Assembly: GCA_964500985.1 (NCBI GenBank) | Contig: CAZCRB010000002.1 | Coordinates: 36-64,035, forward strand | DNA: 64,000 bases | Source: an uncultured Eubacteriales bacterium | Lineage (GTDB): Bacteria; Actinomycetota; Coriobacteriia; Anaerosomatales; PHET01 | Direction: 5' to 3' | Shown: positions 34,770 to 54,504 of the stretch, in pieces | Position numbering within the stretch: the first letter of the stretch is position 1 | How the letters are laid out: the number at the start of each line of letters is the position of its first letter | Position numbers and translations under genes: made by a program | The notes under the pieces: model-generated | Database searches by the model: none | Seen by the model: only the letters and a program-made list of their open reading frames with translations | Told to the model about the DNA's origin: nothing

Positions 34770-36062
34770 CTACTTGTTGTGGCAGCGCTCGCACACGCCG
34801 CGGTTGTCGGTGCGCAGAAGCGCGCTCGACACGTTCGGGGTGACGCCGGCCTTGCCACCAACGAGCGTGGTGGTGGGCTCGACGGTCCACGTAACGACTG
34901 CGGTCGGGTGATTCACGAGGCGGGCATTGGCCCAACCGCTCATCTGAGCAGCGGTGCCGTGCGCACGGTGGCACGTCAGGCAACCGAGGTTGTCCTGAAG
35001 CTCGTACTCACCGCGAGCGGCCGTGCTGTTGGGACGGCGCTCGAGCGGCAGAACGCTCGAGGTGACCGCGTCGCTACCCCAGCCGTTGAGCTGGGTCACC
35101 GTGACCGGGGCCACGTTGACAGGGTGGCGGTGGCGAGCACGCGCGCCGACCGAAGCGGTCCCGCCGGTCACGCTGAGCGTGCCGTTGGCATCGCGAGCGA
35201 CCGTGCCGTTGGACTCGAACTGGCCGTAGTCCAGCGTGCCGGTGCGATCGTCGTACTGGGTGTGGCAAGCCGCACACCAGGTCGACATCGAACGATAGGC
35301 GGTACCCGAGTAGCCAGCCGGGAACTTGAACGCGTACTCCGCGGTCGTGTAGTTCGGGCGATACGACGCCATCTGGGTCGCGCCGGGGTTGTGCTTGAGC
35401 CAGCCGCCGTTGATCGCCGAGGCGTTCGAGTTGACGGGGTAGCCCTGCTCAGCCGAGAAGACGAACGGCTGGGGGGTGTCGCCGTTGTAACCACCGACGG
35501 TGACACCGTTGACCGTGTCCTTCAGCAGGCGGTAGTTCGACGAACCGTGCGGATCGTGGCAACCGGTGCAGGTGAGGTTCGTGCCGCCGGAAGCGGAGGA
35601 ACCCGAGCCCCACATCGGATCGGTGGCCGCACCCTTGTCCATGTCGTGCATGGAGGTCGAGATGCCGGTGTTGAACGCACCACCGTTCAGGCCGCCGAGG
35701 AACGCGGAGTTGGTCTCATACATGATCGAGCCGCCCGCGGTCTGAGTCGCAGACCCGGAAGGGCCGGAGTCGAAGAGGCCCATCTCTACGTTGGTCGAAG
35801 CGCCCGGAGCACCGTCGCCGTGGCAGGCGTAGCAGAACTCCTCCATCGTCTGCGCAGATGACACGAGCAGAGCGCTGTGGTCATTGCCCGCAACGTCTTC
35901 CCATGACAGGTTCGAGAACGAGGTGTGAGCGCGGTGACAGCCGGCGCACGCGTCGGTGTCCAGTGCATAGCCGCCGTGCGGTCCGAAGTTGGCGAACGCA
36001 GAACCGGCGGTCGCGAAGAGCGCTACAACGCTGATCGCGAGGATGATTGCTAGTTTCTTCAC
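34770..36062 (-). CDS. Secreted OmcS-like hexaheme cytochrome c (hydrogenase module)
   Basis: Sec signal peptide; 6 CxxCH in 430 aa; HGG..CAGCHRAH, CHDPHG..YRLL, MSTWCAACH, RHP, CLTCHRAH; C-terminal CERCHNK. Confidence 0.82.
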   Translation of the reverse strand: MKKLAIILAISVVALFATAGSAFANFGPHGGYALDTDACAGCHRAHTSFSNLSWEDVAGNDHSALLVSSAQTMEEFCYACHGDGAPGASTNVEMGLFDSGPSGSATQTAGGSIMYETNSAFLGGLNGGAFNTGISTSMHDMDKGAATDPMWGSGSSASGGTNLTCTGCHDPHGSSNYRLLKDTVNGVTVGGYNGDTPQPFVFSAEQGYPVNSNASAINGGWLKHNPGATQMASYRPNYTTAEYAFKFPAGYSGTAYRSMSTWCAACHTQYDDRTGTLDYGQFESNGTVARDANGTLSVTGGTASVGARARHRHPVNVAPVTVTQLNGWGSDAVTSSVLPLERRPNSTAARGEYELQDNLGCLTCHRAHGTAAQMSGWANARLVNHPTAVVTWTVEPTTTLVGGKAGVTPNVSSALLRTDNRGVCERCHNK

Positions 36063-36079
36063 TCAGTTCACCCCCTTCT

Positions 36080-38236
36080 CTAGTGGACCGCGCACGCGAT
36101 GCACGGATCGAAGGACTGGGCAACACGCAGGGCCTCAACGCCACCACCGGCACCGCCGGCGATCGGGGCACCAGCACCACCCTTGGCCGCAGTCTTGGTC
36201 AGAGAGTACTCGACGTTGAGCATCGACTGCTCCATCGGGCCCTCGACGCCGCTGTGGTCCTTGGGCGATGCGTTCCAGGTGGTCGGCACGATGCACTGGT
36301 AGCGATCGATCTTACCCGCGGTGATCGTGCACATGTGCATGAGAGCACCACGCGGAGCCTCGGTCGCACCAAAGCCCTCGGTCGTACCGGGGTTCGGGGC
36401 CATCTGGTAGTACGAGTCGGCGCCCACCGGCAGAATGCTGAGCTGCTTGAGCCAGCCCCCGTCGGCGAACGTCACGGGCAGCGCGGCGGTTGCCGGAGCT
36501 GCGACGGCGCCGATCATCTGCTGGATCAGCACGAGCGACTCGATCGCGCGGGCGCGCAGGCGGTCCATGTTGGACAGCCCGGCCTTGAGACCGAGTACCC
36601 AGTCAGCCACGGGGCCGGTGATGACCGCGTGAGCGTGCTGGTAGGCCGTGACGATCGTGGCCTTGTCGAGACCGGAGATGACCGTGTCGTCGACCACGAG
36701 GTCGGGGCCGCCACCCGCGAGGCCGCCGACAACCGTCAGCGTGGCCACGCCGGAACGGACACACGCGACCGCGAGGTCGGGGTGGATCAGCTTGGGCTCG
36801 AGGCCGGTGACCGCACCGTCGACCTTCTTGTACGCGGCGTAGCCGGTGATCCCGGGCGCAGCGACGGTCGAGGCCAGGGTCTGGCCGCCCTTGAAGATGC
36901 CGTTGACGGCCAGGCGCGCGAGCGGCCCGACCTCCATCGGGTTGCCGTTCCAGCGCGGGGCCTTGAGCCAGGAGTACTTGGCGTCATCGGTGCGCAGCGG
37001 AGCGGTGCGGACCTCGGTGCGGGGGTTCGTGATGTCGGTCGCCGCATCGATGACGGCGGTGCCGTCGGCGTTGAGGGCCGTGACCGAACCCTGATAGCGC
37101 GAGTACGTGATGTGCTCACGCAGGTTGTTGTGCACGTCGGTCTTCGAGATGAACGACTTGGTGCCGCCAGCCAGGTAGGTGGCCTTGAGCATGAAGCCGC
37201 GGCCGATACCCAGCGTGCCGTTGGTCTGCGGGAACGCACCCCATGCGAGGAAGTTGCCGCAGCCGCCGCCCCAGCCGGTGTTGGTAGCGTCCGGATCGCC
37301 AGCGGCGCTCTTGTTGCCAAGCGCCCACAGCGTCGGGTACGCGCCCTTCAGCAGGGTGGCGTTGTCGAGGTTGTCGTAGTTCGGGTACAGCGCGCCGAGC
37401 GCAAGGAACAGCGGCACGTACTCGCGAACGATGAAGTCACCGATCTCCGTCATCATCGAGCGGAAGCGGGTGATCTTGGTCGACAGGTCCTCGTTCTTGT
37501 TGGTGGTGACGCCACCGCCGACGAAGCACGAGGTCATCGGCATACGTCCGGCGAACATCGCGCCGGCCTCGAAGGTGAGGCGACGGATGCGCAGCGCCTT
37601 GACGTACTGCTTGATGACCGCCGACCACAGCTCCTTGGAGAAGCCCTCGACATCGACCGGCAGCGTGCCATGGGCAGCGTCAGCCGGATTGGCAGCCGCA
37701 CCGTTGCCCTGCGAGAGCAGGAGCGGGTGGTAGAAGCTGTCGTCGAAGTACGGCGTCCACGGCGGGACGTTGGGGCCCTGAACGTAGCTCGGGGCGGCAA
37801 GGTGATACATGTGCGTGATGCTCGACATGAGGAACTCGGCCGAGAGCACGAGGTTGCGGACGTGAACCGCCTTCTCCGGGATGCCCTGACCGGTCGGCAC
37901 GGGTACCGTGCTGCTGCCGTCGGTGCTCGAGAGCTGGTTGCCGCCCTTGACCCACGTCTGGAAGCAGTCGTTGTAGCCGAGGACCGAATCGACCGCGAAG
38001 GTCGAGGCCTGGCCGTGCGGTACCGGACACACACCGCAGATGCGCTGCGTGAACGTGATCGCATCGTTGATGTCGCGGCCGATGAGGAAGTTCTCAAAGC
38101 CACGCCACAGGTTGCCGTGGACGTCGGCGCCGGTTACTTTCTCGGCGTCGGTGCGACCGGCGATCGGGGCGGTGGTGAGCTTCACGCCGAGGTGACCCTC
38201 GATGCGTGAAATAGGATCGACTTCCTTGATTGCCAT
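36080..38236 (-). CDS. [NiFe] hydrogenase large subunit, group 1 (1a/Hys-like, Cys form)
   Basis: DPISRIEGH; L1 QRICGVCPVPH; EAPRGAL; L2 FDPCIACAVH followed directly by the stop codon. Confidence 0.95.
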   Translation of the reverse strand: MAIKEVDPISRIEGHLGVKLTTAPIAGRTDAEKVTGADVHGNLWRGFENFLIGRDINDAITFTQRICGVCPVPHGQASTFAVDSVLGYNDCFQTWVKGGNQLSSTDGSSTVPVPTGQGIPEKAVHVRNLVLSAEFLMSSITHMYHLAAPSYVQGPNVPPWTPYFDDSFYHPLLLSQGNGAAANPADAAHGTLPVDVEGFSKELWSAVIKQYVKALRIRRLTFEAGAMFAGRMPMTSCFVGGGVTTNKNEDLSTKITRFRSMMTEIGDFIVREYVPLFLALGALYPNYDNLDNATLLKGAYPTLWALGNKSAAGDPDATNTGWGGGCGNFLAWGAFPQTNGTLGIGRGFMLKATYLAGGTKSFISKTDVHNNLREHITYSRYQGSVTALNADGTAVIDAATDITNPRTEVRTAPLRTDDAKYSWLKAPRWNGNPMEVGPLARLAVNGIFKGGQTLASTVAAPGITGYAAYKKVDGAVTGLEPKLIHPDLAVACVRSGVATLTVVGGLAGGGPDLVVDDTVISGLDKATIVTAYQHAHAVITGPVADWVLGLKAGLSNMDRLRARAIESLVLIQQMIGAVAAPATAALPVTFADGGWLKQLSILPVGADSYYQMAPNPGTTEGFGATEAPRGALMHMCTITAGKIDRYQCIVPTTWNASPKDHSGVEGPMEQSMLNVEYSLTKTAAKGGAGAPIAGGAGGGVEALRVAQSFDPCIACAVH

Positions 38237-38260: not shown

Positions 38261-39685
38261 TTAGAGGATCACGAACGGCAGGAAGGCGTCCGGATAGCCC
38301 TTTTCCGTGCAAGCCATGCACGGGTGGCCACCGGCGACGCAGTTGCCGCCCTTGTTTCCGTTGGTTCCACCGACTCCGTAGTCGAGCGTGGAGTCGTTGC
38401 GCGGGTTCTGGCCGTTCCAGCCGTGAGGACCACAGAGAGTCATGGTCTGCGGGCCCTTGCAGCCGATGAGCTGCAGGCAGCCCGGCTCGCCCGGCTTGGT
38501 CGCGAACACGCCGTTGAGGGCGTCCTGGTAGCGCTTGCAGTACGGACCGTGCAGCGGCACACCGTAGACAGCCTTGAGGCGGCGCTGCTTGTCGACCGCG
38601 CTCGCGTTGATCGACACGTTCAGTCCGGCGCCATTGCGGTGCAGGATCTTGAGCGGGCCGTCAGCGCCGACTGCGGACTGGGTGAAGTCCACGAGCCACG
38701 CAACGACTGTCAGCACGAACCACCACGGGTTGGTCGGGCAACCGGGGACCGCGACGACCTTGTCGGCGGCAGCGATACCCGCCGCGCCGCACTTGGTCCG
38801 CAGGAACTCCTCGGTGCCAAGAGCACCGGTCTGGCCCTCGCCCAGGATCGGCGAGACACATGCCGGGTATCCACCGAAGCACGCACACTGGCCGATCGGG
38901 ATGATCGCGGCGCACTTGGGGTGGGTGGCGAGATCCTTGACGGTCTCGTCAAACGAATGCTCGGCGGTGCCGGCCTCGTTCATGCCGATGGAACACCACG
39001 CGGCGCCATCGTGCAGCGCGCCGTCGCCGGCGTTCCAGTAGCCGCCCTCGTCCTTGGGCTGAATCGAGCCCTCGACGACGAGAACGAACGGGGTGGAGGC
39101 GCCGGCCGTGTCCTTGCGGAGCTGGTCGAGCCACTGGTACGCGAGGTCGCCGCCCATACCCATGACCGTCTCATGATACTGAAGGTCGATGAAGTCGATG
39201 AGCACGTCGGCGATCGTCGCGACGAAAGCGCTGTTGCCGCCATTGGTGCCGGCAGACTCGAAGTTCACGCCGGTACCCGAAAGGGCACTCGCGGCGCTGG
39301 ACTCGAAGATGGTGCGGTGACCGTACGGGTGATCCGCACCGGTCTCCTTGGTGATGCCGAGAGCGGCCGCAGTGGCCGAGCCGGCTACGTTCCCGCCGTC
39401 GCCGTTGCCACCAACGGCGTAGTCGAGAGCCTTCAGCGTAGAGATGCTGGTGCCCTCGATAGCGGTGCCTCTGACGTCTTCGAAGAGACCCAGAAGCGAG
39501 GTCGAGCAGCCCGTGCACTCCGCGCCATGAACCCAAACCACCTTGGGCTTGTCGGTCCATGCGCCCGTCCATACGGAGCCGTGAGCAAATGCTTCGGCGA
39601 CCTTTGCGAGGTCGACTTGGCTCATGCCCATGGCCGCTGCCAGGGTGCCCAACCGGGTGACAAACTGTCGCCTGGTTATCGCCAT
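38261..39685 (-). CDS. [NiFe] hydrogenase small subunit with Tat signal
   Basis: ITRRQF twin-arginine motif; HGAECTGCS, GQCACFGG, PGCP, HGPYC, GCKGP and GHPCMAC motifs. Confidence 0.95.
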   Translation of the reverse strand: MAITRRQFVTRLGTLAAAMGMSQVDLAKVAEAFAHGSVWTGAWTDKPKVVWVHGAECTGCSTSLLGLFEDVRGTAIEGTSISTLKALDYAVGGNGDGGNVAGSATAAALGITKETGADHPYGHRTIFESSAASALSGTGVNFESAGTNGGNSAFVATIADVLIDFIDLQYHETVMGMGGDLAYQWLDQLRKDTAGASTPFVLVVEGSIQPKDEGGYWNAGDGALHDGAAWCSIGMNEAGTAEHSFDETVKDLATHPKCAAIIPIGQCACFGGYPACVSPILGEGQTGALGTEEFLRTKCGAAGIAAADKVVAVPGCPTNPWWFVLTVVAWLVDFTQSAVGADGPLKILHRNGAGLNVSINASAVDKQRRLKAVYGVPLHGPYCKRYQDALNGVFATKPGEPGCLQLIGCKGPQTMTLCGPHGWNGQNPRNDSTLDYGVGGTNGNKGGNCVAGGHPCMACTEKGYPDAFLPFVIL

Positions 39686-39944: not shown

Positions 39945-40003
39945 TTGTAACGGTTGTTACATTACCTCTGGCTAATCCTATCGCGCCCGTCCGAGGCGGT
40001 CAA
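39945..40003 (-). promoter_or_regulatory. Hydrogenase operon promoter with palindromic operator
   Basis: TTGACC (40003-39998) N17 TAGGAT (39980-39975); operator TTGTAACGGTTGTTACAT at 39945-39962. Confidence 0.75.
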
Positions 40004-40041: not shown

Positions 40042-41559
40042 TCAGCTGGTCGGCGGCTGGTCACCGGCGCGATCCGCGTACTTCTTGGAGAGCGGTGTCC
40101 GCGCGATGAACTCCTCGCTGTCGACCACGGGTGCCTCAAGGACACGTGCGATACGACGCAGCTCGGCGTCCTCGGTGCAGAAGAGCTTCGCGCGCTGTGC
40201 GACCGCCATGATGCCCGCGTCTCGCCAACTCAGCTCATAGCGCTCCTGCAGTGCGCGTGCATCCGACTCGGAGAACTCGACGGGATTCAGCAGTTCGGCG
40301 AGCGAGATGCCGTCCTGGGCGAGGCCCTTGAGGTCCTCGTAGTCCTCCGTCATGACCTCCCAGCGCACGCGGCGGATGTCCATGCGCGCGATCTCGCCTG
40401 CGGCGAACAGCGCGTACACGAAGTCAGGCGTGGCGAAGTAGCGGCGGCGGCGCAGCAACAGCAGCAGCGGCAGGAGCAGCAGCGGCGAGAGGCACAGCAG
40501 CCACCCGGTCGGCGTTGTGGGCGTCGGAATCGGGTTGGCGGCCGCCGGCCAGCCCCACACCTGGATGCGCCCGTTGGCGGTGTCGGCGATGAATATGCGG
40601 CGGCGGGCGTCGACCGACGTGTCGTTGGGGTAGCTGAACTGCCCCTCCAGCACGCCATGCTCGCCGAAGGAGACGACCTTCTCGGCCTTGCGAGCGTCCC
40701 AGATGGTGCCGTCGTGGGCGAGCGTGTCGATGACCACCAGACGGCGCGGCTCTTCCTTCTTGAGCTTGGGCAGGAAGTCGAACCCGCGCGGGAGTCCCTG
40801 CGTGATGACCATCCGCTTGTACTCGCCCGCCCGGTCGAAGACCTGGATGCGGCGGTTGTTGGAATCGGCGACCCAGACCTCGTTACCGATGACCTTGATC
40901 GAGTTGGGGAACTGGAAGACCCCGGGGCCCTCCGACGCCTCGTTGACGAGGCCGGCGGTGCCCACGCTACGACGGAACGTGCCGTCGGGCGCGAAGATGA
41001 GCATGCGGTGGCCGTTGAGTATCTCGGTCACGTAGAGGGTGCCGTCGGGCGCAAAGTCCAAGGCGACGGGCGCCCACTGGAAGCCCTGCGTATCGAACTT
41101 GGGAAGCTGGTCGGCGGGCAGCTTGGGATCGAACTGCTTCTTGAACTTGCCGTCCTTCGAGAAGATGAACACGCCCTTCTTGCGGCGGTCCGTCACGTAG
41201 TAGTCCCCCGTCTTGGGGTGCTGCGCGACGTAGAGCGGGACGAGCAGATTGCCCTTGCCCCAAGTCGCGATGTGCGTGCCGCGAGGCGTGAACACCTCGA
41301 TGGCGCCCTTGCGCGAATCGGTCACGAGGACCTTGTTGTCGGCGGAGAGCACCCCGAGCGGCCTGACCAGCTGGCTCTGCCCGGCACCCGAGAAGGAGTA
41401 CAGGTACTGCGGGGCGGGCAGCAGCTCGGCTTGGTTGAAGTCGATCTGCACACCGATCGTCCGCGTGTTGCGGTAGTTGACGTACGCGGCGCCGATGAGC
41501 GCCAGCAAGACGATGAGCGCGACTATCGCGATGATCTGACGGATTCGCCTGCGAGACAT
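40042..41559 (-). CDS. NHL-repeat beta-propeller protein with two TM anchors and a PIN-like C-terminal tail (copy 1)
   Basis: NHL repeats (FQFPNSI..VADSNNRRIQVF; FSYPND..IADTANGRIQV); TM at both ends; tail RDAGIMAVA..CTEDAELRR. Confidence 0.85.
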   Translation of the reverse strand: MSRRRIRQIIAIVALIVLLALIGAAYVNYRNTRTIGVQIDFNQAELLPAPQYLYSFSGAGQSQLVRPLGVLSADNKVLVTDSRKGAIEVFTPRGTHIATWGKGNLLVPLYVAQHPKTGDYYVTDRRKKGVFIFSKDGKFKKQFDPKLPADQLPKFDTQGFQWAPVALDFAPDGTLYVTEILNGHRMLIFAPDGTFRRSVGTAGLVNEASEGPGVFQFPNSIKVIGNEVWVADSNNRRIQVFDRAGEYKRMVITQGLPRGFDFLPKLKKEEPRRLVVIDTLAHDGTIWDARKAEKVVSFGEHGVLEGQFSYPNDTSVDARRRIFIADTANGRIQVWGWPAAANPIPTPTTPTGWLLCLSPLLLLPLLLLLRRRRYFATPDFVYALFAAGEIARMDIRRVRWEVMTEDYEDLKGLAQDGISLAELLNPVEFSESDARALQERYELSWRDAGIMAVAQRAKLFCTEDAELRRIARVLEAPVVDSEEFIARTPLSKKYADRAGDQPPTS

Positions 41560-41601: not shown

Positions 41602-42636
41602 CTACTTGCCGAGTGACGCCTGGAGCTGCGCGATCTCTTTGTTGCTCGTGTCGAGCTTCGCGGCCTCGGTGAGGACCTGCTTCGCGCCCTTCTTGTCGCC
41701 CTTGGCGATGAGGATCTTGGCGTGAAGTATCGCAGCATCGACATCGCTCGGCTCGAGCGCGCGTGCGAGCAGGACCGCCTCGACCGCCTCGTCCAAGCGC
41801 TTGTCGGCGTAGGCGGCCTGGGCCTGCTTCAGCGCGTCTTCGCCGCTACCGAGCTTCTCGAGGGCCTTGCGCGGCAGGTCGGCCTCGGGGGCGAGGTCCG
41901 CGGCTTTGCGCAGGTGCACGGCCGAGTTGATCTTGTCGTTGCGCGCCAGGAGGATGATCCCGTAAAGGTAGTGGGCCTCAGCGTAGTTCGGATCGAAGGC
42001 GAGGGCGGCATCAAGCTGCTCGAGGGCGGCGTCATCGTCCTCGAGCCCGTGGAGGGACTGCGCGAGGAGGTAGTAGGTGTCGGACGCGTCCTTGCGGATG
42101 CGCAACGACGCCTTGAAGAAGCCGGCGGCATCCTCGTAGCGCTTGTCGTCGAGGGCGATCTCGCCCAGATGGAACAGCGCGGTCTCGCGGCGCTGGTTGA
42201 TGTTCTCCATCGTCTGGCCCTCGGTCAGCTCGACGACCTTGGTGAAGTAGCGCTCTGCGTTGGCGGTGTCCTTGGTCTCCATGGCGACGAGGCCGAGGTC
42301 GAGGTACGCGCCCGTGTGCTTGTTGTCTAGCTTGATGGCGGCCTTGAACTGCTCGGTGGCATCACGGTAGACGCCGGCCGAAGCGAGCGCCTCACCGTAG
42401 CGAACGCGGGCCGCCGCGCTGTTGGGGTTCTTCTTGACGAAGTTGCGGAGCTCGACCAGCGCGCGCTGGGCCGGGGTGGCCGTCGCCTCGACGCGAGTGC
42501 TCTGCCAGATGGTGTAGCCGAACAGCGCGGCAAGGCCGAGGACTCCGGCGACGAGCGCGATGATGACGTAGCGAAGAAGCGAATCGGTCCGGTCGGAACG
42601 GACGTCGGGCGTGGCGCCCGATGCGTGTTCTGTCAT
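41602..42636 (-). CDS. Membrane-anchored TPR protein (copy 1)
   Basis: N-terminal TM; multiple TPR repeats (ALAFDPNYAEAHYLYG). Confidence 0.88.
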   Translation of the reverse strand: MTEHASGATPDVRSDRTDSLLRYVIIALVAGVLGLAALFGYTIWQSTRVEATATPAQRALVELRNFVKKNPNSAAARVRYGEALASAGVYRDATEQFKAAIKLDNKHTGAYLDLGLVAMETKDTANAERYFTKVVELTEGQTMENINQRRETALFHLGEIALDDKRYEDAAGFFKASLRIRKDASDTYYLLAQSLHGLEDDDAALEQLDAALAFDPNYAEAHYLYGIILLARNDKINSAVHLRKAADLAPEADLPRKALEKLGSGEDALKQAQAAYADKRLDEAVEAVLLARALEPSDVDAAILHAKILIAKGDKKGAKQVLTEAAKLDTSNKEIAQLQASLGK

Positions 42637-42694: not shown

Positions 42695-42741
42695 TTGTAA
42701 CTGTTGTTACGAACGATACTCGGCGCCCACAGGAGCGTCAA
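42695..42741 (-). promoter_or_regulatory. TPR-NHL (copy 1) promoter with palindromic operator
   Basis: TTGACG (42741-42736) N17 TATCGT (42718-42713); operator TTGTAACTGTTGTTACGA at 42695-42712. Confidence 0.75.
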
Positions 42742-42766: not shown

Positions 42767-43603
42767 CTAGGGAAGCTGCTTGACCACCTCGGTGATCGCG
42801 CTCTTGAGCGAGTCCGGCGAACCGCTCTTGACCGCCGCCATCTCCACGGCCACCATCACCGAGGCGTCCGTGAAGCCTACGACCGCGAAACGACGGCCAT
42901 CGGTACCGAAGTACACGTCGTGCCCGTTGACCTTGAAGGTCGCGGCGTCCTTGGGATAGCGCTGCTTGACCTGACTGGTCAGCGCCTTCTGCGCATCCGC
43001 GCCGGTCCGGAACTGCTCCGCCGAGATCACGAGCTGGACGACATCGGCGTTGCCGGCCGGCAGGTACTGACGCGTGACGGACAAGGCATCGTTGGCTGCC
43101 TTTCGCGCGGTGTAGCCCGTGATCGCATCGGGAACCCACGCCGCCAACGCACCATTGGGCGTGACCCCCGGATCCGGCGTGGACGTGGGATTCTTGGTCC
43201 CACCCGAGCCCGACGACCCCTTGTCGGATGTCGGCGACTTGCCGGCGTTGATCGCGTCGAGCTGGGATGCGGCGCTCTTGAAGCCGGCGTCCCCGGCGAC
43301 AACCGCGGCGAGCTTCTCTTTGGCGGTGGTCAGATCGCCCGCCGCGAGCGCGCTCTGTGCCTGTGCATAGAGGGCCTCGAGCTTGCGATGCTTGTCGCAC
43401 ACGATCGTCTTCTCCTTGACGCGGTACTTGGCCGCGTCCTTCGAAGGTACCTCGATGGTGCGCACGCTGTCGGAGACCTCGTGCCCGTAGGTGCACATGA
43501 CGCGCTCGCCGGTCTGAACCTCGACTTTGCGCTGACACCCGGCGAGCGAACCCGCGCTCAGCGCGAGAACGAGTGCGAGCACCGCGAGCAGTGGTCTTCT
43601 CAT
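42767..43603 (-). CDS. Lipoprotein, paralog of 29280..30074
   Basis: Lipobox LAGC after ATG 43603 (ATGA overlap with the upstream gene); C-terminal YFGTDGRRFAVVGF. Confidence 0.8.
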   Translation of the reverse strand: MRRPLLAVLALVLALSAGSLAGCQRKVEVQTGERVMCTYGHEVSDSVRTIEVPSKDAAKYRVKEKTIVCDKHRKLEALYAQAQSALAAGDLTTAKEKLAAVVAGDAGFKSAASQLDAINAGKSPTSDKGSSGSGGTKNPTSTPDPGVTPNGALAAWVPDAITGYTARKAANDALSVTRQYLPAGNADVVQLVISAEQFRTGADAQKALTSQVKQRYPKDAATFKVNGHDVYFGTDGRRFAVVGFTDASVMVAVEMAAVKSGSPDSLKSAITEVVKQLP

Positions 43604-45045: not shown

Positions 45046-45074
45046 GGTCCTCCTTGCATGCCGTTCTCATCCGA

Positions 45075-45112: not shown

Positions 45113-45141
45113 ACGGTATCAGATTGTGATGCGAGAACCGG

Positions 45142-46449: not shown

Positions 46450-47388
46450 CTACACCTCCCCACCGGTCAGCGCTTCGGACTCGTTCTTGGTCCGGCGGGC
46501 GGAAAGCGCCGCAAGACCGCCGACGACGAGCGTCGGCAGGAGAAGCTTAGCACCAGTGCCCGACAGCATGCTCGACGCCATCGGAGCGACGTGATCCTCG
46601 ATGAACGGATCAGCCTTGGGCGGCGCGAGCAGGAAGTTCTTGCTCGCCCAGAACATCGAACCGCTACCGATCCAGTTCTTGGTGCCGGCGGCGGGACCCG
46701 AGGTGAGGGTGTAGCCGTTGGCCGGATCCTCGAGGTACTTGATGATGTTGTCGCGGGCGTCCCACTTCATCGCCTTGGCCGGGCAGCTCGACACGCACGC
46801 CGGCTCATGAGCGAGCTCGGGCACGATCGGCACCGGCAGCGCGCCGGTGCTCAGAGTGATGCTGCTGACCCAGTTGCCCGAGGCGTCCTTCACGGCACGC
46901 GTGGGCAGGGCGGTCGCGGGATCGACCACGCCATCGGCGCCGGCGCGACCGTTGCACAGGGTGCACTTGTTCATCTTGACGTCGGTGGTGTCCTCGTAAG
47001 CGACGCCGACCTTGGGATAGCCGCCGCGCTGACAGCCGAACTCACACGGCTTGGGACCCGGGCCCACTTTGCAGACGTTGGGCTTGCACAGCGCCTTGTC
47101 GACGCTGACCGCACCGGTTGCCTCTTTCTTCATGGCACCGAGCGGGCAGGCCTTGACGCAGGGCGGGTCGTAACAGTGCCAGCAGGTGTAGCGCATGAAC
47201 GCGCCCATATCCGAACGCTTGAGGCTCTTGATCGCCAGCCGCTGACGCGGGTTGACGACGGAGCGCTGCGGGATCACCTGGGCGATGTTGTCGGGGTTCT
47301 TGAGACCCCACTCGCGCTTACAGGCGATGACACAGCCGTTGCAGCGCATGCACTTATCGACATCCTGGAATACTGCCATCACAGTCAT
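46450..47388 (-). CDS. fdhB: Formate dehydrogenase iron-sulfur (beta) subunit with C-terminal TM
   Basis: CMRCNGCVIAC, CWHCYDPPCVKACP and KCTLC..PACVSSCP motifs; C-terminal hydrophobic helix as in FdnH. Confidence 0.85.
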   Translation of the reverse strand: MTVMAVFQDVDKCMRCNGCVIACKREWGLKNPDNIAQVIPQRSVVNPRQRLAIKSLKRSDMGAFMRYTCWHCYDPPCVKACPLGAMKKEATGAVSVDKALCKPNVCKVGPGPKPCEFGCQRGGYPKVGVAYEDTTDVKMNKCTLCNGRAGADGVVDPATALPTRAVKDASGNWVSSITLSTGALPVPIVPELAHEPACVSSCPAKAMKWDARDNIIKYLEDPANGYTLTSGPAAGTKNWIGSGSMFWASKNFLLAPPKADPFIEDHVAPMASSMLSGTGAKLLLPTLVVGGLAALSARRTKNESEALTGGEV

Positions 47389-47401: not shown

Positions 47402-50400
47402 CTACATCTTCTCGAGTCGGCAGAGACAGGCCTTGAACTCAGGGATCGTCGTGTTCGCGTCCATCGCGTCGATGGTCAGGTCGTTCGCCCGCGAACCGGT
47501 CGACAGACCCTGCTCGCCCCAGTGCCACGGAATTGCCACGACACCCTGGGCCACACGCTGGTTGGACTGGATTCCCACGCCGACACGGGCGACGAAGCCC
47601 TTGCCGTAGTTGTCGAGCGCGTTGACGACGCCCTGGGCGTTGGTGTTGCCGTCGGTGCGGGCGGTGACGACCTTGACGTAGTCGCCATCCGCGATGCCGA
47701 GCAGGCGTGCGTCGACGTTGTTGAGCTCGATCCACGGCTCCGGCTCGGCCTCGACGTTCCACCAGTTGTTACGGGTGATGGGGCCGCCCTGGAAGTGCTC
47801 GACGCACCGGATGGTGGTCAGCACCAGCGGGTACTTGCTCGGCTTACCGATGGTCGTGCCGTCGTAGATCAGGTTCAGAGGACCGGCAGCCTGGATAGCG
47901 GTGCTATCGGCGCTGTTGTAGCCCCAGACCAGATCGCCGAGGTCATCGGCGCGCGGAGTCTCGTACGGCTCGGTGTGCGCCGGGAAGCGACCGGGCTCGA
48001 CGTGGATCGCCGGAGCGGTCCCGTTTGCGAGATACGGCTTGTCGGCGAGCACGTGCGAAGTCGGCGCAAGGATCGTGCGGTACCAACGCGAGTAGTTGTA
48101 GATCGTCGTGCCGGTGGGAGCCCACGCGCTCTGGCCCTTCGGGGAGAAGAGGCGCACGCACGAGTCCGGACCCATGAAGAAGTCCGACTGGTCACCGACG
48201 ACTTCGGCGTTGTTGTACAGCACGCGGCGGTTGACGAGCCACGAGTAGCCCCACTTGTGGGAAGCGAGGGTGCCGTACGGATCCTGGCGGTCACGGCTCT
48301 TGGAGCGGTTCGAGACTTCCCAGGTGCTGTAGGCGCCGTAGAGGCGACCCATGCCCTTGGCGGTGTCGTAGCCCTCCGTGTAGATCCAGATCGTACCGCC
48401 GGCAGAGACGCTGCTCGTGTACTCGCGGAACACCATCTCAGCGACGAACTCGGAGCCCTGGACCTTGGTTGAGGTCGCGGGGTTGAGCGCGGCGTAGGTG
48501 GTGCCGGCGCCGGTCCACGCACCAGGCGTGGCGTAGTCGATCGTCAGGCCGGTCGTGTCGCTGCCTGCCGCGGTGAACGCAACCGCGCCACCGGGAGTCC
48601 AACCGTACGGCGTGCCGTAGAGGTTGGCGTAGGCGGCCTTGGAAGCCCAGCCCTGGACGGACTCGATGTGAGCGAAGCAGTCAGCGTCGTTGAGCGCCTT
48701 GGCGAACCGGAGCAAGAGCTCGTTGTCGTCCTTGCTGTTGCCCTTGGGGTCAACGGCCTTGTAGCGCCACTGCAGGGTACGACCGGAGTTCGTGGCCGCG
48801 CCCGCCTTCTCGACGTGGGCCGCCGACGGGATCAGGTACGTGACACCCGTGCACTTGCGGGACACCGCAGCGGTCTCGTTCATGAACATGTCGACGCAGA
48901 CGAGCGTGTCGAGGTTGTAGAGCCCCTCGCGGACCTTCGCCTGGTTCGGCTCGGTGACGGCGGGGTTCTGTCCCCACACGACGAGCGACTGGATGCGGGT
49001 CGCGTCGGTGTGCGTCATGTACCTGAACATCTTGATGTGGTTGAAGCCGTTGCCCTTGGGCCACAACGAGTACGCCTTGTCCACGATGGCGCGCCGTGCG
49101 GCGAGCGTGGTGGCGCTGGTCGCAGCGGAGTATCCGCCGAACCACTTGAGCGTCATGTTGTAGAACCCGCGCTGTTGCAGCTGCATGGCGCCCGTGTTGT
49201 AGGCGTCGTCGTAGCTGTTGTCCATCTTGGAACGCACGGTGCCGCTGAAGTCAGTGGTCCCGGTGGTTCCGGACAGAGGCAGGCCCCACAGCCCGTCCAT
49301 GTACTTGCCGAACGCCTTGTTGGTGTCCGTACCGTCCACGGCCGTGACCTGGGTGCCCGGGTTGCCCGAGTAGCCGGGGATGTTGCCGTAGAGCAGGCCC
49401 ATGTCCGTCGAACCCTGGACATTGTGGATGCCGCGCAGCGCGTTGATGCCGCCGCCGGCGCGTCCCGTGTTGCCCATCATCGACTGCAGGTTGGCCATTG
49501 CCTTGACGTTCTGCGCACCGTAGGTGTGCTGCGTCAGACCCATGGCGTACAGGATCGTCGTGGCGCGGTAGCCGGCCTGCGGTGCCTGGTCGGTATCGAC
49601 CGTGTAGGTGACGAGAACCTTGTCGCCTGCGTTGATGCCGCCCGCGACGGCGACGCGCTTGAGCGTGCCGAGCGAACGCGAGTTGGTACCGGCGACCACG
49701 GTGTAATGCGTACCGGCCGTGTAGGTGGTCAGACCATCAAGGCTCTTGACCGAGGCAACGGACAGGTTCCAGCCCCACATCGGCACCGCGTCAGGAACGC
49801 CGGCGGTGTCGGTCAGGCGCACCACGCGGTCGGTGAACGTGACGTTCGACGACACGGAGGAGCAGCGGCTGTTCTGGATGATCGCGTCACCGACGAGCGC
49901 GATGTCGGCGACCGTGCAGCCGCAGATGTCGGCAACGACGGTGTCACTGTAGGCGGCAAGGTGCTGCTTCATGCGCGAGAACACCGTGCCGGCGGCGTCA
50001 CACGCGGCGGCCTTCTTGGGGAAGTTCGAGATCAGCAGGTTGTTGGTCTCGGTGCCCAAGGGGGTTCCGCCGGTGGTGGTGACGGTACCGCGATCGTAGT
50101 CCGTGCCGTTGAGCATGAACCGCGCGTCGGTGTACTTGGAGCTGCCCGCCACGGTGGCGACCTGCGTGCTCGCGTGCGTTGCGTCGCCGTCCGTGAAGAA
50201 CGTGCCGTTGCCGCTCTGGTTCAGGTACGCCCAGTACTCGGTCTTCGTGGCGGCGGGGATCTCGGTGCCGTCAGCGAAGTACGTCGTCTGGTCGGTCCGC
50301 ATCTTCTCGATGATGTAGGCCATCACGCCGTTGGCCAACGCGATGTCGGTTCCGGGACGGATGCGGACGTAGTCATCGGCCTGCAGCGCGGTGCGCGTCT

Positions 50401-51283
50401 TGCGGGGGTCGATGACGATGAAGCGCGCAGGCTTCTTGTTGGCACGGTCACCCGAGAAGTACTGCTTGGGGAAGCGTGCGCGGTTGACGTGCGCCATGCA
50501 CGCCGGGTGGTTCTCAGTGGGGTTGGCACCCCACGCGATAACGAGCGAAGCATTGGCGATGTCCGCCCAATGGTTCGTCATCGCGCCTCGTCCGAATGCG
50601 GCGGCCAGACCGGCCACCGTGGACGAGTGTCATATACGGGCCTGATGCTCGACGTTGCTGGTACCGAAGTTCGCGATGATCTTGCGGTACAGGTAGTTCG
50701 ACTCGTTGTTCATGTGCGAACTACCGAGGAACGCAACGGTCTTGCTGTTGTACTTCATCGAGCCCGGCACCCAGTTGGTGGCGTCGGCGTCACGCGCCGT
50801 CTTGAGGCGAGTGGCGATATCGGCCAGCGCGGTGTCGATCGGCACGGCGGACCAAGGGCCATCGCCGGTGCGCTTGTACGCGATCGGGTTGCTGGTGCCG
50901 TCGGCCGCGAACACGTTGTCGACCGGGTGCGTGCCCGTGAACGCGCCGATACGGCGCGGGTTGTTCACGAGCTGGAGCGCCCCTGCGCCCTTGGCACACA
51001 GGCCGCCCGAGTTCATGGGCGACTCGAAGTCACCGTAGACGTCTACAACGACCGTCGGGTCGGATTTCTTGACGACGACGCGCTGCCCGCAGCTTGCGGA
51101 GCAGTACGGGCACGTCGTCGTGGTGATCTGGTAGTCAGCTGAGTTCTCGTACGCGGACGCCTTTTCAGGATCGTACGCGAACTCGAGGCCGCAACCGACC
51201 ACCGCGGTGGCAGCTGCGGCGGTTTTGATGAAGTCACGCCTGGTGACCCCACCAACCGGCTGCCCGGTGTCCCTAGTTGCCAT
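47402..51283 (-). CDS. fdhA: Selenocysteine-containing Mo/W formate dehydrogenase alpha subunit (Tat-exported, 1293 aa, Sec218)
   Basis: ORFs 50630..51283 and 47402..50617 are in frame across TGA 50632-50630 in EHQARI-U-HSSTVAGLAAAFGRGAMTNHW. Tat motif TRRDF; CPYC..C..LCAKG; ALRGIHNVQG; EFKACLCRLEK. Confidence 0.95.
50587..50627 (-). other. SECIS element of fdhA
   Basis: CTCGTCC-A-CGGTGGCC-GGTCT-GGCCGCCG-CATTC-GGACGAG directly after the UGA; GGUCU loop as in the fdhF-type SECIS. Confidence 0.88.
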
Positions 51284-51480: not shown

Positions 51481-51599
51481 GAAGAACACATATGCGGACG
51501 AGCCTCCCTTACCCTGGGTCGTAGCGCGACAACGAGCGGGCCATTGCCGGTGGCTTCCACTCAGGACTCCCCGTTTGCCGGCGAGAAGCCCGTCGCGCC

Positions 51600-51698
51600 G
51601 ATTCTCTTTCCAAGGCGGGAGGCGCCACCGTTTCCAGTGACACCCTATCGGCCCGAGTACCGTGGCAAGACGCGGTAGGTCGCGGGGGCTCGAGAATC
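51600..51698 (-). ncRNA. Molybdenum/tungsten cofactor (Moco/Tuco) riboswitch, P3-less type
   Basis: P1 GATTCTC/GAGAATC; AGGG, P4 with GAAA loop (GTCACTG-GAAA-CGGTGGC), GCCTCCC, TGGAAAG; located in the leader of a molybdopterin enzyme. Confidence 0.82.
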
Positions 51699-51754
51699 GT
51701 CCATATCCTGTTGTATCAAGCGGTCGCACTGCTCGTCGAAGAGACTTCTGTGCC

Positions 51755-51815
51755 TTGTAACACGAGTTACAAGTACCGCACGTTCACCTTACTCTCGGGC
51801 GCAACCCCGCGTCAA
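51755..51815 (-). promoter_or_regulatory. FDH operon promoter with palindromic operator
   Basis: TTGACG (51815-51810) N18 TAAGGT (51791-51786); perfect-arm operator TTGTAACACGAGTTACAA at 51755-51772. Confidence 0.75.
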
Positions 51816-51842: not shown

Positions 51843-53402
51843 TTACGAGGGGGACGGCTTGGCCCCTTTACCGCTGCCGAGGTACATCGACTTGAACTCC
51901 TCGACGTCGACCACGCGCACGTCGGCGAGCACGCCGATCCTGCGCAGGTCGCGGTCCTCGGTGCCGAGTGCGCGTGCGCGCTGGGCCATGGAGACCACGA
52001 TAGCCTCACGCTGGGCCACATCGAGACGATCGACGAGCGCACGGGCGTCGGACTCGGAGTACTGCTCGAACTCTATGAGCTCGGTCAGCGTGACACCGTC
52101 GACCACCTTGCCCTCGTAGGCCGCGAGGTCCTCTTCCGGTGCCACCAGGCGCAGTCTGCGGCGATCAGCGACCGCGCGGATCTCGCCGGCTGCGGCGAGT
52201 GAGTCGACGAAGTCGGGCGTCACGACGATGCGGACACGGCGGCGCAGGAGCAGCAGCGGGAGGAGGAGCAACGGCGACAGGCACAGCAGCCAGCCGAGCG
52301 GCGTGGTGGGGGCGGCGACCGCAGGCGGCTGCGCGACCGGCCAGCCCCAGACCTGGACCTGGTTGTTGTCGCGGTCGGTCACGTAGATGCGCGCCCCGCT
52401 CACGGCGACGTCGTTGGGATAGTTGAACTGCCCGGGGCCGAAGCCCTGGCTGCCGAACTGCGTGAGCCGCTTGCCGTCGAGGTCGTAGACGTCGACGGTG
52501 TGCGCGACGGCATCGACCGCGTAGAGACGCTGCTTGGCATCGATGGCGATACCGCGCGGTATGCCCGAGGTGTCGACGAAGCGCTTGAACTCGCCCTTCT
52601 CGTCGAACACCTGGACCCGGCGGTTGTCACCGTCGGAGACGAAGATCTCCCCGCGTCGCGAGACGGCCAGGCCGTTGGGGAAGTAGAAGCCGCCGGGAGA
52701 CTCCTCGGCAGACTTGACCTGTACGGTCTTGCCGACGGTCGCCGTGCGGCTGCCGTCTTCACTGAAGATCATCAGCTGGTGCTTGCTGGTGTTGTCCACG
52801 TCGGTGACGCGCAGCGCGCCGGCGCTGTCGAACGTGAGTGCGAGCGGCGTCCAGTCGAGCGTCTCGTTCTTGGGCTCGAACATCTTCTTGAACGCGCCCT
52901 GCGTGCTGAAGATGACGATGTTGCGAAGTCTGCGGTCGGTGACCCACACCTCGTCGCCCTTGACGGCGAGATGCACGGGGCTCTGCAGGTTGCCGTCGGC
53001 CGTCTTGGCGAACGAGCGCACGTAGCGGCCGTTACGGGTGAACGCGCTGATGCGGTTGTGGCCGAAGTCCGCGACGAACACGGTCTGCCCGTCGGTGGAC
53101 ACGCCCACCCCGATCGGGCGATCGAGCGCGCTTGCTCCCTGCCCGGTGATCGAGAAGAGGTACTGCGGCGGGTCGATCATCGCCTCAGGTGCGGCTATGT
53201 CGACGCTGGGCAGTCTGCGGTTCTGGATGAAGTAGTAGGTGGAGTACGCGAGCAACGCCAGGAGCACGACGAGCAGCGACAGCAGCAGGATGCGCTTGCG
53301 CACCTCACGCTTGGTCAACTTCGGCCTCCCCTGTGTGCGGGGAGCCTCCGGCTGCGGCGGAACCTGTGGTGCGTTCGTGGCGGACATCTCGTCAGGAGCC
53401 AT
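51843..53402 (-). CDS. NHL-repeat beta-propeller protein with two TM anchors and a PIN-like tail (copy 2)
   Basis: Same architecture as 40042..41559, including GWLLCLSPLLLLPLLLL and SESDARAL..TEDRDLRR. Confidence 0.85.
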   Translation of the reverse strand: MAPDEMSATNAPQVPPQPEAPRTQGRPKLTKREVRKRILLLSLLVVLLALLAYSTYYFIQNRRLPSVDIAAPEAMIDPPQYLFSITGQGASALDRPIGVGVSTDGQTVFVADFGHNRISAFTRNGRYVRSFAKTADGNLQSPVHLAVKGDEVWVTDRRLRNIVIFSTQGAFKKMFEPKNETLDWTPLALTFDSAGALRVTDVDNTSKHQLMIFSEDGSRTATVGKTVQVKSAEESPGGFYFPNGLAVSRRGEIFVSDGDNRRVQVFDEKGEFKRFVDTSGIPRGIAIDAKQRLYAVDAVAHTVDVYDLDGKRLTQFGSQGFGPGQFNYPNDVAVSGARIYVTDRDNNQVQVWGWPVAQPPAVAAPTTPLGWLLCLSPLLLLPLLLLRRRVRIVVTPDFVDSLAAAGEIRAVADRRRLRLVAPEEDLAAYEGKVVDGVTLTELIEFEQYSESDARALVDRLDVAQREAIVVSMAQRARALGTEDRDLRRIGVLADVRVVDVEEFKSMYLGSGKGAKPSPS

Positions 53403-54396
53403 CGGTCACCCGTTTCAGTCCCGCTTCTGCGTCCTTGTTGCCCGGGTCCGCCGCCAACGCGCGACGGTACGCGAGCGCTGCCGCGTTCAGGTTCTTGCTC
53501 TGTTCGTAGAGCTGGCCCACCGCGAGCAGCGCAGGCGCCGACGCCGGATCGAGCGCTGCGGCGACGCGAGCCTCTACCAGCGCGGCCTTGGGGTCACTCG
53601 CTTTGAGGCTCTGCGCCTTGGCCAGACGCGCGCTGACGGTTCCCAGCTTCGCGAGCGCCTCAGCCGGCTTCTCGGCCTTGGGCGCCGAGTCCGCGGAGGT
53701 GCGGAAGTGCTCGGCTGCGCCCGCGACGTCACCGTCGGCGAGAAGCACGTTGCCGTAGTCGTAGTTGGCCTCGGGCATCTTGGGGTCGAACAGCAGCGTC
53801 GCCTCGAGCTCCTCGCGGTACTCGTCTTCGCTGCCGAGCTCGCGGAAGCAGACGGCGAGCGCGTAGTGGGAGTCGGACGCGTCACGGCGGATGCGGATGG
53901 CCTCCTTGAAGTTGCGCGCGGCCTCCTCGTACTCCTTCTGCTCCATCAACGCGGTGCCCAGATAGAAGTACGCGGTCTCCAGCTCGGCGTTCTGCCGGGT
54001 CATGTCCGTGCCCTGGAGCAGGTCGACGACCTTCTGGAAGTAGTTCTCACCGACCTTGTACTGCTTCTGCTTCAGCGCGATGAACCCGAGACCGGACAGC
54101 GCCGGCGCGTAGTCCTTGCGCACCTTGAGGATCTGCTCGTACTGCGTGGCGGCCTCGCGGTCGCGCCCGGCGACCGAGTAGGTCTGGGCGAGGCGCATAC
54201 GCGTGTCGATATCGTTGGGATTGGCGCGTACCTGCGCGATGAGCCCGCCGATGGCTCGAGCCGCCGGCGTGGAAGCCTCCACCGTGCGATTGCTCTGCCA
54301 TACCGAGTAGCCGAGAAAGACGCCGAGCCCCAGAACGAGGACGGCGACGACCGCGATGGCGGCATCGAGAGGACGTACCGACTTCAGGTCGGGCAC
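53392..54396 (-). CDS. Membrane-anchored TPR protein (copy 2)
   Basis: N-terminal TM; TPR repeats (LLFDPKMPEANYDYG); AAGGAG RBS before GTG 54396. Confidence 0.88.
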   Translation of the reverse strand: MPDLKSVRPLDAAIAVVAVLVLGLGVFLGYSVWQSNRTVEASTPAARAIGGLIAQVRANPNDIDTRMRLAQTYSVAGRDREAATQYEQILKVRKDYAPALSGLGFIALKQKQYKVGENYFQKVVDLLQGTDMTRQNAELETAYFYLGTALMEQKEYEEAARNFKEAIRIRRDASDSHYALAVCFRELGSEDEYREELEATLLFDPKMPEANYDYGNVLLADGDVAGAAEHFRTSADSAPKAEKPAEALAKLGTVSARLAKAQSLKASDPKAALVEARVAAALDPASAPALLAVGQLYEQSKNLNAAALAYRRALAADPGNKDAEAGLKRVTDGS

Positions 54397-54466
54397 GCGA
54401 AGCACTCCTTACCCTGTGAGCGCCGGGCCTGCCGGGGCCCGTGCGGCGCGCATCGTTTCGAGATCG

Positions 54467-54504
54467 AATCTAGCGACGCGCCAACATTGTGTCAATTGTT
54501 ACGA
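54467..54504 (-). promoter_or_regulatory. TPR-NHL (copy 2) promoter with palindromic operator
   Basis: TTGACA (54495-54490) N17 TAGATT (54472-54467); operator TTGTGTCAATTGTTACGA at 54487-54504 covers the -35. Confidence 0.7.

Follow-up and report, generated by a model that had tools for sequence, protein, structure and literature searches.

OmcS-family hexaheme cytochromes as probable partners of a [NiFe] hydrogenase and a formate dehydrogenase in twin gene cassettes of an uncultured Coriobacteriia bacterium

Which protein takes up the electrons of an exported hydrogenase or formate dehydrogenase (FDH) when a secreted hexaheme cytochrome occupies the gene position of the classical cytochrome b? 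The question is raised by a 64,000-nt stretch of contig CAZCRB010000002.1 (GCA_964500985.1, forward positions 36-64,035; hereafter the window) from an uncultured member of the Coriobacteriia (Anaerosomatales; PHET01). It carries two paralogous minus-strand cassettes, each running from an operator through genes for a tetratricopeptide repeat (TPR) protein and an NHL-repeat protein to a second operator, an enzyme exported by twin-arginine translocation (Tat), a secreted hexaheme cytochrome and a hairpin. The enzyme is a [NiFe] hydrogenase (HydS-HydL, with hexaheme cyt1) in one cassette and a selenocysteine FDH (FdhA-FdhB, with hexaheme cyt2) in the other. We consider it likely that each cassette is an OmcS unit into which a dehydrogenase has been inserted, with the hexaheme as the dedicated electron-transfer partner of that enzyme.

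The twin gene order had been described in an initial annotation of the window, and every gene named there was found on the minus strand with exact coordinates (Table 1). The G+C content across the window is 64-72%, and in the region of interest all genes with coding-type base composition at third codon positions (GC3) lie on this strand. The gaps between enzyme and hexaheme genes measured 17 nt (HydL to cyt1) and 3 nt (FdhB to cyt2), exactly as annotated. The paralogues of the two cassettes share 38% (hexahemes), 43% (NHL) and 40% (TPR) identity, and TPR2 and the start of NHL2 overlap by 11 nt.

Cyt1 and cyt2 are proteins of about 430 aa with six CxxCH motifs each, a Sec-dependent signal peptide and no anchor. 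Pfam and NCBIfam scans returned generic multiheme signatures only, and a single-sequence search of the PDB gave no OmcS match, cyt2 merely touching OmcE at E=0.05. A family profile built from 36 homologues and run against PDB sequences placed OmcS (6EF8) at the top (E=1.2×10−10, residues 8-406 of 407), followed by OmcE (7TFS, E=1.2×10−3), and hemes 1-6 of profile and OmcS paired one to one. With an OmcS query rebuilt from the profile alignment, 78 diderm OmcS loci were retrieved. In a joint alignment of 114 diderm OmcS homologues and 77 actinobacterial hexahemes, the six CxxCH motifs occupied identical columns in 100% of the sequences, OmcS included. Exactly six non-motif histidines were kept in both clades (H29, H46, H139, H172, H313 and H368 in cyt1 numbering), with H46, H172, H313 and H368 corresponding to H16, H147, H257 and H335 of OmcS. 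On these sequence grounds we conclude that cyt1 and cyt2 are true members of the OmcS family, which bears out their designation as OmcS-type in the initial annotation.

The histidine H46 stands in an invariant CAGCHRAH motif, in the column of OmcS His16, and is 100% conserved. The numbering of His16 as inter-subunit ligand of heme 5 reportedly goes back to Wang et al. 2019. In the OmcS filament, a ligand of this type completes the coordination of heme 5 in the adjacent subunit (PMC12203936). An AlphaFold2 (AF2) monomer model of the hexaheme, based on a 119-sequence alignment, reached a pLDDT of 80.9 and a pTM of 0.83; its main low-confidence part comprises N-terminal residues 19-48, the segment bearing H46, as would be expected if this segment were ordered only at an interface between subunits. 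As far as sequence can tell, the conserved trans-ligand histidine speaks for oligomerisation at the least. It also bears on a further explanation, in which the hexahemes polymerise into long OmcS-type filaments and hydrogenase or FDH is bound along them or at their base as an enzyme-decorated nanowire. Conservation of H46 together with the full OmcS ligand set and the low-confidence segment would suit such filaments, as would the lack of an anchor on HydSL and the hexahemes, which something must retain in a cell without an outer membrane. The OmcS-like protein CwcA of Thermincola is described as insoluble and was modelled as a polymer, according to the published passages on it (PMC7911101). 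Against this, Geobacter omcS loci contain no enzyme genes, there is no report of a filament from the bacteria considered here, and the sequence would look alike for a dimer, a short stack or a long filament. We regard the decorated filament as unlikely, a judgement to which the transcript levels given below also speak.

Relatives were collected by a pattern-based scan with one genome per species. It returned 421 relatives, of which the best 79 loci were kept, all from Coriobacteriia or other Actinomycetota; they were mapped by tblastn, and the gene upstream of each hexaheme was assigned. In this gene-neighbourhood comparison, which had been proposed along with the initial annotation, the adjacency held: the enzyme-hexaheme junction was present in 69 of the 79 loci (37 HydS-HydL-hexaheme, 32 FdhA-FdhB-hexaheme), and in both groups genes for a 20-heme cytochrome, TPR and NHL nearly always lay ahead. 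Measured from the stop codon of the enzyme gene, the codon of the first heme cysteine follows after 128-143 nt in hydrogenase loci (34 of 37) and after 120-129 nt in FDH loci (31 of 31), so that only a few nucleotides separate the two genes. Such a junction was found in 65 of 68 loci, at identities down to less than 40%. Chance adjacency of enzyme and hexaheme was rejected on the basis of the conservation and the spacing statistics. In a neighbour-joining tree rooted on OmcS, hydrogenase-linked and FDH-linked hexahemes formed separate clades. Tandem cassettes occurred in eight genomes (loci L001-L007 and the window), and several others carried cassettes at separate loci. In two Actinomycetes metagenome-assembled genomes (L052 and L059, ~6800-15900) the order was HydS-HydL-hexaheme-FdhA-FdhB, with a single OmcS-type gene between the enzymes.

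The coupling was also seen from the side of the hydrogenase. In a reciprocal test comprising nine loci, every actinobacterial locus with a long HydL had an OmcS-type gene directly downstream, and about 70 other group-1a-like loci (≤33% identity, among the matches listed) had no OmcS-type gene, a few of them carrying other multiheme genes. A locus search with HydL alone yielded just two true relatives; the hexaheme queries cyt1 and cyt2 matched more than 1,100 protein clusters each, in two sets that probably overlap.

These comparisons bear on the view that adjacency means co-regulation only, the hexaheme serving general Fe(III) or electrode respiration and the enzymes delivering electrons by another route, for example a cytochrome b. 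Such a view could point to the HyaC/FdnI-type cytochrome b within the regulon and to the membrane anchor that FdhB has of its own. It does not sit well with a few-nucleotide junction kept across such sequence divergence, with hexaheme clades that match the type of enzyme, or with a HydS that lacks the C-terminal helix for docking on cytochrome b, and we hold it to be very improbable.

The diderm OmcS loci bear on the origin of the cassette. Hydrogenase genes were found in none of the 78 loci, and the one weak FDH-like match lay on the opposite strand. With the actinobacterial NHL profile, an NHL open reading frame (ORF) of ~330 aa was detected in 52 of the 78, and in 42 of 70 evaluable loci it immediately precedes omcS in the same orientation; TPR genes were less regular. 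In Geobacter, the gene for the NHL protein GSU2505 adjoins omcS, and its product is possibly required for OmcS to be assembled or expressed (PMC9070056). The NHL-omcS pairing in diderm loci suggests that (TPR)-NHL-OmcS is the ancestral unit and hence that TPR and NHL go with the cytochrome, not with the enzyme. In the simplest reading this unit is old, and in Actinomycetota the enzyme genes entered it between the genes for NHL and the cytochrome. Three Thermoleophilia loci (L057, L058 and L063) have the order 20-heme-TPR-NHL-hexaheme with no enzyme genes, L063 with two hexahemes, and these enzyme-less modules agree with TPR and NHL belonging to the cytochrome; their hexahemes nest inside the FDH-linked clade. 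The initial annotation had proposed that TPR and NHL are module-specific assembly factors. An accessory role is plausible in view of the gene pairing with omcS and of low transcript levels (see below), although the two genes accompany the cytochrome.

Compared with the ~330-aa diderm proteins, the actinobacterial NHL proteins have gained a second, almost invariant transmembrane (TM) helix (GWLLCLSPLLLLPLLLL, then RRR) and a C-terminal domain of ~130 aa with conserved T4, D6, F7, S57, D60 and R83 (domain numbering). Our reading of the topology makes this domain probably cytoplasmic. Weak PIN matches were obtained for 3 of 28 members (best E=8.5×10−4), and a search of the domain against PDB sequences gave no match. 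The membrane-anchored TPR and NHL proteins could be present in small amounts and serve the cytochrome in maturation, assembly or tethering, and the conserved NHL-OmcS pairing suggests that cytochromes of this type have a general assembly factor that awaits characterisation.

The hydrogenase has the features of group 1 (1a-like) enzymes in the ligand motifs of its large subunit and in the Tat signal on HydS. The latter carries an RRQF Tat motif and starts with ATG at 39685, with AAGGAGG 8 nt upstream; it has no C-terminal helix of the kind that docks classical enzymes on cytochrome b. The Ni-Fe ligand motifs QRICGVCPVPH and DPCIACAVH of HydL do not vary among 25 homologues. With no C-terminal extension, the protein stops at the terminal histidine of DPC[IL]ACA[VI]H in 27 of 32 homologues, so that cleavage by a maturation protease is not expected. 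The nearest solved relatives are the periplasmic [NiFeSe] hydrogenases of Desulfovibrio, compared with which HydL has ~200 and HydS ~150 extra residues. A [NiFeSe] identity was rejected because the ligand in HydL is cysteine, not selenocysteine. The best NCBIfam match of HydL, NiFeSe_hydrog, scored 304.6 bits against a curated cut-off of 600, and HydS scored 139.5 bits against 470, which places neither in a curated subgroup. Since all hydrogenase scores fall below the curated cut-offs, we regard these proteins as a distinct long-subunit lineage; the next HydL relatives outside it are ≤33% identical, among the matches listed.

FdhA resembles the catalytic subunit of FDH-N. It has a Tat signal (TAT_signal_seq 29.4 bits, cut-off 16.7) and an in-frame TGA within HQARI-U-HSSTVAGL, corresponding to selenocysteine in the ARxUH motif, with a hairpin after it; FdhB is a four-cluster subunit with a C-terminal helix. 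The match to the FDH-N equivalog TIGR01553 (345.8 + 87.6 bits) stays below the cut-off of 814.2. The fdhA leader of 559 nt contains, between operator and start codon, a full-length match to the Moco/Tuco riboswitch (57.6 bits, gathering score 36). About 130 nt past the riboswitch, a hairpin followed by a T-run (…GGATGCCGGTCTTTTTGTTG…) was noticed by eye and could be its expression platform.

In Desulfovibrio, [NiFeSe] enzymes use c-type cytochromes as acceptors: the periplasmic [NiFeSe] and [NiFe] hydrogenases and FdhAB reduce tetraheme cytochrome c3, from which electrons pass through Qrc to menaquinone, and some operons include a c3 gene of their own (HynABC3, FdhABC3). Like these, the enzymes described here are Tat-exported two-subunit proteins without cytochrome b, the hydrogenase being closest to them, and would have a c-type multiheme acceptor with onward transfer to a quinone-reducing module in the membrane. 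They differ in that the partner is an OmcS-family hexaheme, that no outer membrane encloses a periplasm and that dedicated TPR and NHL genes are present; HydL in addition differs from the [NiFeSe] large subunit in its cysteine ligand, its greater length and its missing C-terminal extension. Neither operon belongs to the HynABC3/FdhABC3 type, as its third gene encodes a 430-aa OmcS-family hexaheme, not a tetraheme cytochrome c3.

The likeness raises the possibility that the hexaheme is a monomeric carrier that diffuses in the wall zone or is loosely bound there, like type I cytochrome c3 of Desulfovibrio. The relationship of the hydrogenase to c3-dependent periplasmic enzymes would fit, as would a Sec-dependent signal peptide with no anchor. 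Among group-1a-like loci of other phyla, c3-like or other multiheme genes lie beside the hydrogenase: a 162-aa four-heme gene just downstream in L215 and 9- to 10-heme genes downstream in L219 and L221. However, in a monoderm a soluble carrier would not be held back by an outer membrane, enzyme-specific clades and two dedicated paralogues in one genome argue for specific docking, and the conserved trans-ligand histidine argues against a monomer; we consider such a carrier quite improbable. In several Planctomycetota hydrogenase loci (within L181-L208), 9-heme genes lie upstream.

Transcript data exist for one relative. Coriobacteriaceae sp. EMTCatB1 was the dominant bacterium on a thermophilic methane-producing cathode (PMC7943316), and one of our loci (L042) corresponds gene for gene to its genes 1c0412-1c0404, in the order 20-heme cytochrome, TPR, NHL, FdhA, FdhB, hexaheme, x2, x1. 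The published account places the FDH (1c0408, 1c0407) "with" the multiheme cytochrome 1c0406 within the top 10% of closed-circuit transcripts (PMC7943316). The closed-circuit values, in transcripts per million, are 142 for the 20-heme cytochrome, 57 for TPR, 85 for NHL, 795 and 1253 for FdhA (two ORFs), 1242 for FdhB, 2716 for the hexaheme, 135 for x2 and 162 for x1 (PMC7943316 Table S5); the two replicates of this transcriptome differ widely. Transcripts of FdhA, FdhB and the hexaheme were 3- to 15-fold lower in open circuit and in BrES (PMC7943316). The TPR and NHL transcripts were 15-20 times below those of enzyme and cytochrome, and hexaheme mRNA was about twice the FDH mRNA, with no vast excess. 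These data show that FDH and hexaheme are co-expressed, and the profile fits the promoter and hairpin layout predicted in the window. Tight translational coupling and a roughly 2-fold ratio of hexaheme to FDH mRNA fit a near-stoichiometric partner better than the bulk polymer of a long filament, and the near-stoichiometric co-expression favours a subunit-like role. That enzymes converting H2 and formate have an OmcS-family protein as their dedicated partner in a monoderm lineage is thus well supported by comparative genomics and one transcriptome. The initial annotation had suggested a dedicated partner, and the conserved junction, the enzyme-matched clades, the reciprocal search and the co-expression in EMTCatB1 all speak for it.

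The cassettes appear to share their control with a cytochrome operon. The palindrome TTGTAAC-N4-GTTACAA occurs at five sites in the window at ≤3 mismatches, where 0.11 are expected, and the operators that had been annotated before TPR-NHL and before each enzyme are correctly placed. Every site lies just 3' of a predicted -10 element or covers a -35 element, which is where a repressor would bind. In the loci of relatives (1.24 Mb) there were 72 matches, 33 of them upstream of hydS and 26 upstream of fdhA, compared with none in shuffled sequence. Rex and CRP were considered as the regulator and not adopted; the half-site TTGTAAC differs from the Rex consensus half-site TTGTGAA. No regulator gene was found among the ORFs of the window that were scanned for families (ten ORFs lay outside the scan). 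The terminators annotated after the hexaheme genes are present as very stable hairpins, although they lack a classical U-tract. A weaker operator-like site with a promoter lies at ~34620-34650, ahead of the gene pair for the 461-aa protein and the 1007-aa cytochrome.

The initial annotation had noted that the usual cytochrome b is missing from both operons. None is indeed encoded within them, but the nearest cytochrome b gene of the window, of HyaC/FdnI type, heads a four-gene operon with 6-heme, 12-heme (11+1) and 20-heme cytochromes behind the same type of operator as the enzyme cassettes. From its sequence, the product is the probable menaquinone-coupling membrane subunit.

These elements suggest the following mechanism. 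An ancestral (TPR)-NHL-OmcS unit would have received a two-subunit extracytoplasmic dehydrogenase, and the hexaheme would be made from the mRNA of the enzyme, translationally coupled to it and in the position of the classical cytochrome b. We infer that electrons would leave HydS or FdhB at its distal Fe-S cluster, enter the hexaheme and move on to the co-regulated 20-heme, 12-heme and 6-heme cytochromes. One branch would then lead through the HyaC/FdnI-type cytochrome b to menaquinone, conserving energy, and another would cross the cell wall and end at Fe(III) minerals, electrodes or partner cells. Electron flow along this path is probably reversible, so that a cathode could drive the formation of formate or H2. 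The contact of alpha and beta subunits with cytochrome b would thus be stretched by c-type cytochromes, resembling the hydrogenase/FDH-c3-Qrc-menaquinone chain of Desulfovibrio. The hexaheme might act as a 1:1 subunit, as a short wall-spanning stack or as a long polymer. A wall-spanning or extracellular polymer with a catalytic head at one end, on which other partners dock through the interface between the N-terminal histidine and heme 5, seems doubtful to us.

The 1007-aa cytochrome could, by its sequence, be one candidate docking partner on such a polymer, and with its OmcS-type N-terminal half it might likewise dock on a long filament. Homology to the OmcS-type hexahemes, specifically to their heme 1-3 half, covers its first ~200 aa (hhalign probability 97.9%, E=6×10−13) and takes in equivalents of H29 and H46. 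It is predicted to be co-transcribed with the 461-aa protein, and matches of its type lie ~3 kb downstream of cyt1 in L001, L003 and L014.

Several points weigh against the reading of the cassettes as OmcS units with an inserted enzyme and a dedicated hexaheme. The actinobacterial hexahemes have specific histidines, H224 (83%) and H311 (88%), which could alter heme ligation relative to OmcS. A Foldseek search of the PDB with the confident AF2 model gave noise only and did not list 6EF8, and an earlier, shallower model also failed to retrieve OmcS; this failure is likely a limit of the method with loop-rich, heme-free models. The strict conservation of H46 argues for oligomerisation, so that the picture of a simple 1:1 subunit may be incomplete. 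The cytochrome b link, finally, is drawn only from the gene order and operator of this window.

Among known systems, OmcS of Geobacter sulfurreducens (GSU2504; 6EF8/6NEF) is like the hexahemes in being a secreted protein of ~400-430 aa with six collinear CxxCH motifs, the same six histidines and an adjoining NHL-repeat gene (GSU2505). Here, in contrast, the host is a monoderm actinobacterium and the gene is joined in an operon with hydrogenase or FDH; the NHL protein has an extra TM helix and a PIN-like, probably cytoplasmic C-terminal domain; and the polymerisation known from Geobacter OmcS is a possibility for the present hexahemes. CwcA (Tfer_0075)/TherJR_1122 of Thermincola, which we compared with cyt1 and cyt2 by its published description, is likewise an OmcS-like hexaheme of a monoderm; the passages on it propose that it spans the Gram-positive wall as a stacked polymer, with heme 5 completed by a histidine of the next subunit, as part of a multiheme chain for extracellular electron transfer (PMC7911101). 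There CwcA is 18% identical to OmcS in a hand-made alignment, whereas our hexahemes match OmcS by profile, and the chain is described in those passages as consisting of multiheme cytochromes only, with no linked enzyme (PMC7911101). Escherichia coli FdnGHI and HyaABC share with the present enzymes Tat export, selenocysteine in the FdnG motif, an FdnH-like beta subunit with a C-terminal helix and a HyaC/FdnI-type cytochrome b encoded nearby; they differ in that the cytochrome b gene here stands in a separate operon with three multiheme c-type cytochromes and the OmcS-type hexaheme holds the third-gene slot. The system thus brings together OmcS/CwcA-type cytochromes and cytochrome c-coupled periplasmic dehydrogenases, both of them known kinds, and works like HynABC3 and FdhABC3 without being a member of either.

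According to the initial annotation, no system with this arrangement was known. This holds for the hydrogenase version, since in the searchable literature we found no description of it or of the arrangement as such, but the FDH version is in print and CwcA had been proposed for a monoderm wall. Parvivirga hydrogeniphila is a cultured, obligate Fe(III) reducer growing on H2 or formate, and its cluster MCL4079376-90, with multiheme cytochromes and a molybdopterin oxidoreductase, was proposed as the basis of Fe(III) reduction (PMC9686372). By its published description alone, this cluster appears to be the FDH module; no Parvivirga protein was among the best 120 homologues of cyt2. The FDH version has therefore been seen before (PMC7943316, PMC9686372), but neither paper identified the cytochrome as a member of the OmcS family or noted that the module is conserved, that it may descend from an NHL-OmcS unit or that a version with hydrogenase exists.

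The module is widespread in subsurface and sediment Actinomycetota and is expressed on a working methane-producing cathode, and it probably illustrates the way in which H2 and formate chemistry is linked to minerals, electrodes or the membrane in these organisms. If the hexahemes did form an "enzyme-on-a-wire", H2 and formate would be oxidised, or made from cathodic electrons, away from the membrane. This bears on how nanowires are charged and discharged, how electrons pass a thick Gram-positive wall and how they end up in H2 or formate in biocathode and corrosion communities. With a defined donor enzyme, an OmcS paralogue and accessory genes, the question of the partner is directly testable.

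Table 1. Features of the twin cassettes and adjoining genes in order of transcription (window positions)
Feature	Position	Strand	Remarks
Operator palindrome (TTGTAACAGCAGTTACGA)	59467..59484		5' of cytochrome b/multiheme operon; palindrome scan
HyaC/FdnI-type b-type cytochrome	58491..59345	-	PF01292; TIGR02125 78.9 bits, below cut-off
Multiheme cytochrome	57539..58612	-	six CxxCH
Multiheme cytochrome	56193..57560	-	11 CxxCH + 1 CX4CH
Multiheme cytochrome	54551..56167	-	20 CxxCH; first gene of conserved module in relatives
Operator	54487..54504		5' of TPR2-NHL2; 3 mismatches
TPR2	53392..54405	-	N-terminal membrane anchor and TPR domain; sub-threshold CcmH/CycH-like similarity
NHL2	51843..53402	-	TM1, NHL beta-propeller, highly conserved TM2, ~130-aa C-terminal domain
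Operator	51755..51772		5' of fdhA; perfect palindrome
Moco/Tuco riboswitch aptamer	51587..51707	-	fdhA leader; RF01055
FdhA	47402..51283	-	Tat-exported FDH-N-like catalytic subunit; selenocysteine TGA 50627-50629, then hairpin
FdhB	46450..47388	-	four-cluster Fe-S subunit; C-terminal membrane anchor
cyt2	45142..46446	-	secreted OmcS-family hexaheme (by sequence), FDH-linked clade
Terminator-like stable hairpin	45060..45141	-	3' of cyt2; -44 kcal/mol, z -3.9
x2	43600..45045	-	polytopic membrane protein, ~14 hydrophobic segments; no family match
x1	42767..43603	-	putative lipoprotein (LAGC lipobox); no family match
Operator	42695..42712		just 3' of predicted -10 of TPR1-NHL1 promoter
TPR1	41602..42636	-	paralogue of TPR2
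NHL1	40042..41559	-	paralogue of NHL2; same TM-propeller-TM-PIN-like architecture
Operator	39945..39962		just 3' of predicted -10 of hydS promoter (40003-39975)
HydS	38261..39685	-	Tat-exported [NiFe] small subunit, large insertions; no C-terminal membrane anchor
HydL	36080..38236	-	[NiFe] large subunit, 718 aa; RICGVCPVPH ... DPCIACAVH-stop
cyt1	34770..36062	-	secreted OmcS-family hexaheme (by sequence), hydrogenase-linked clade
Terminator-like very stable hairpin	34690..34769	-	3' of cyt1; -52.7 kcal/mol, z -5.9
461-aa protein	33150-34535	-	no family match
1007-aa cytochrome	30130-33153	-	13 CxxCH; FG-GAP region

In most relatives, x2 and then x1 follow the FDH-linked hexaheme; in the window the ATG of x1 overlaps the stop codon of x2. 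Downstream of the 1007-aa cytochrome, a 264-aa protein (29280-30074, minus strand) gave no family match; by eye, it and x1 have a C-terminal domain in common (AITGW/Y…). Directly upstream of the cytochrome cluster, molybdenum cofactor genes at 59781-63641 (minus strand) encode a MoaA-type radical SAM protein, a MoCF_biosynth-domain protein and a class V aminotransferase, which fits the presence of an FDH. Elsewhere in the window, positions 4275-6446, 6645-7817 and 17713-26566 (minus strand) hold a 723-aa multiheme cytochrome, a methyl-accepting chemotaxis protein (MCP), a complete chemotaxis cluster (CheA, W, R, B, C, D and MCP) and a GAF-GGDEF protein, and a tRNA gene lies at 4036-4109.

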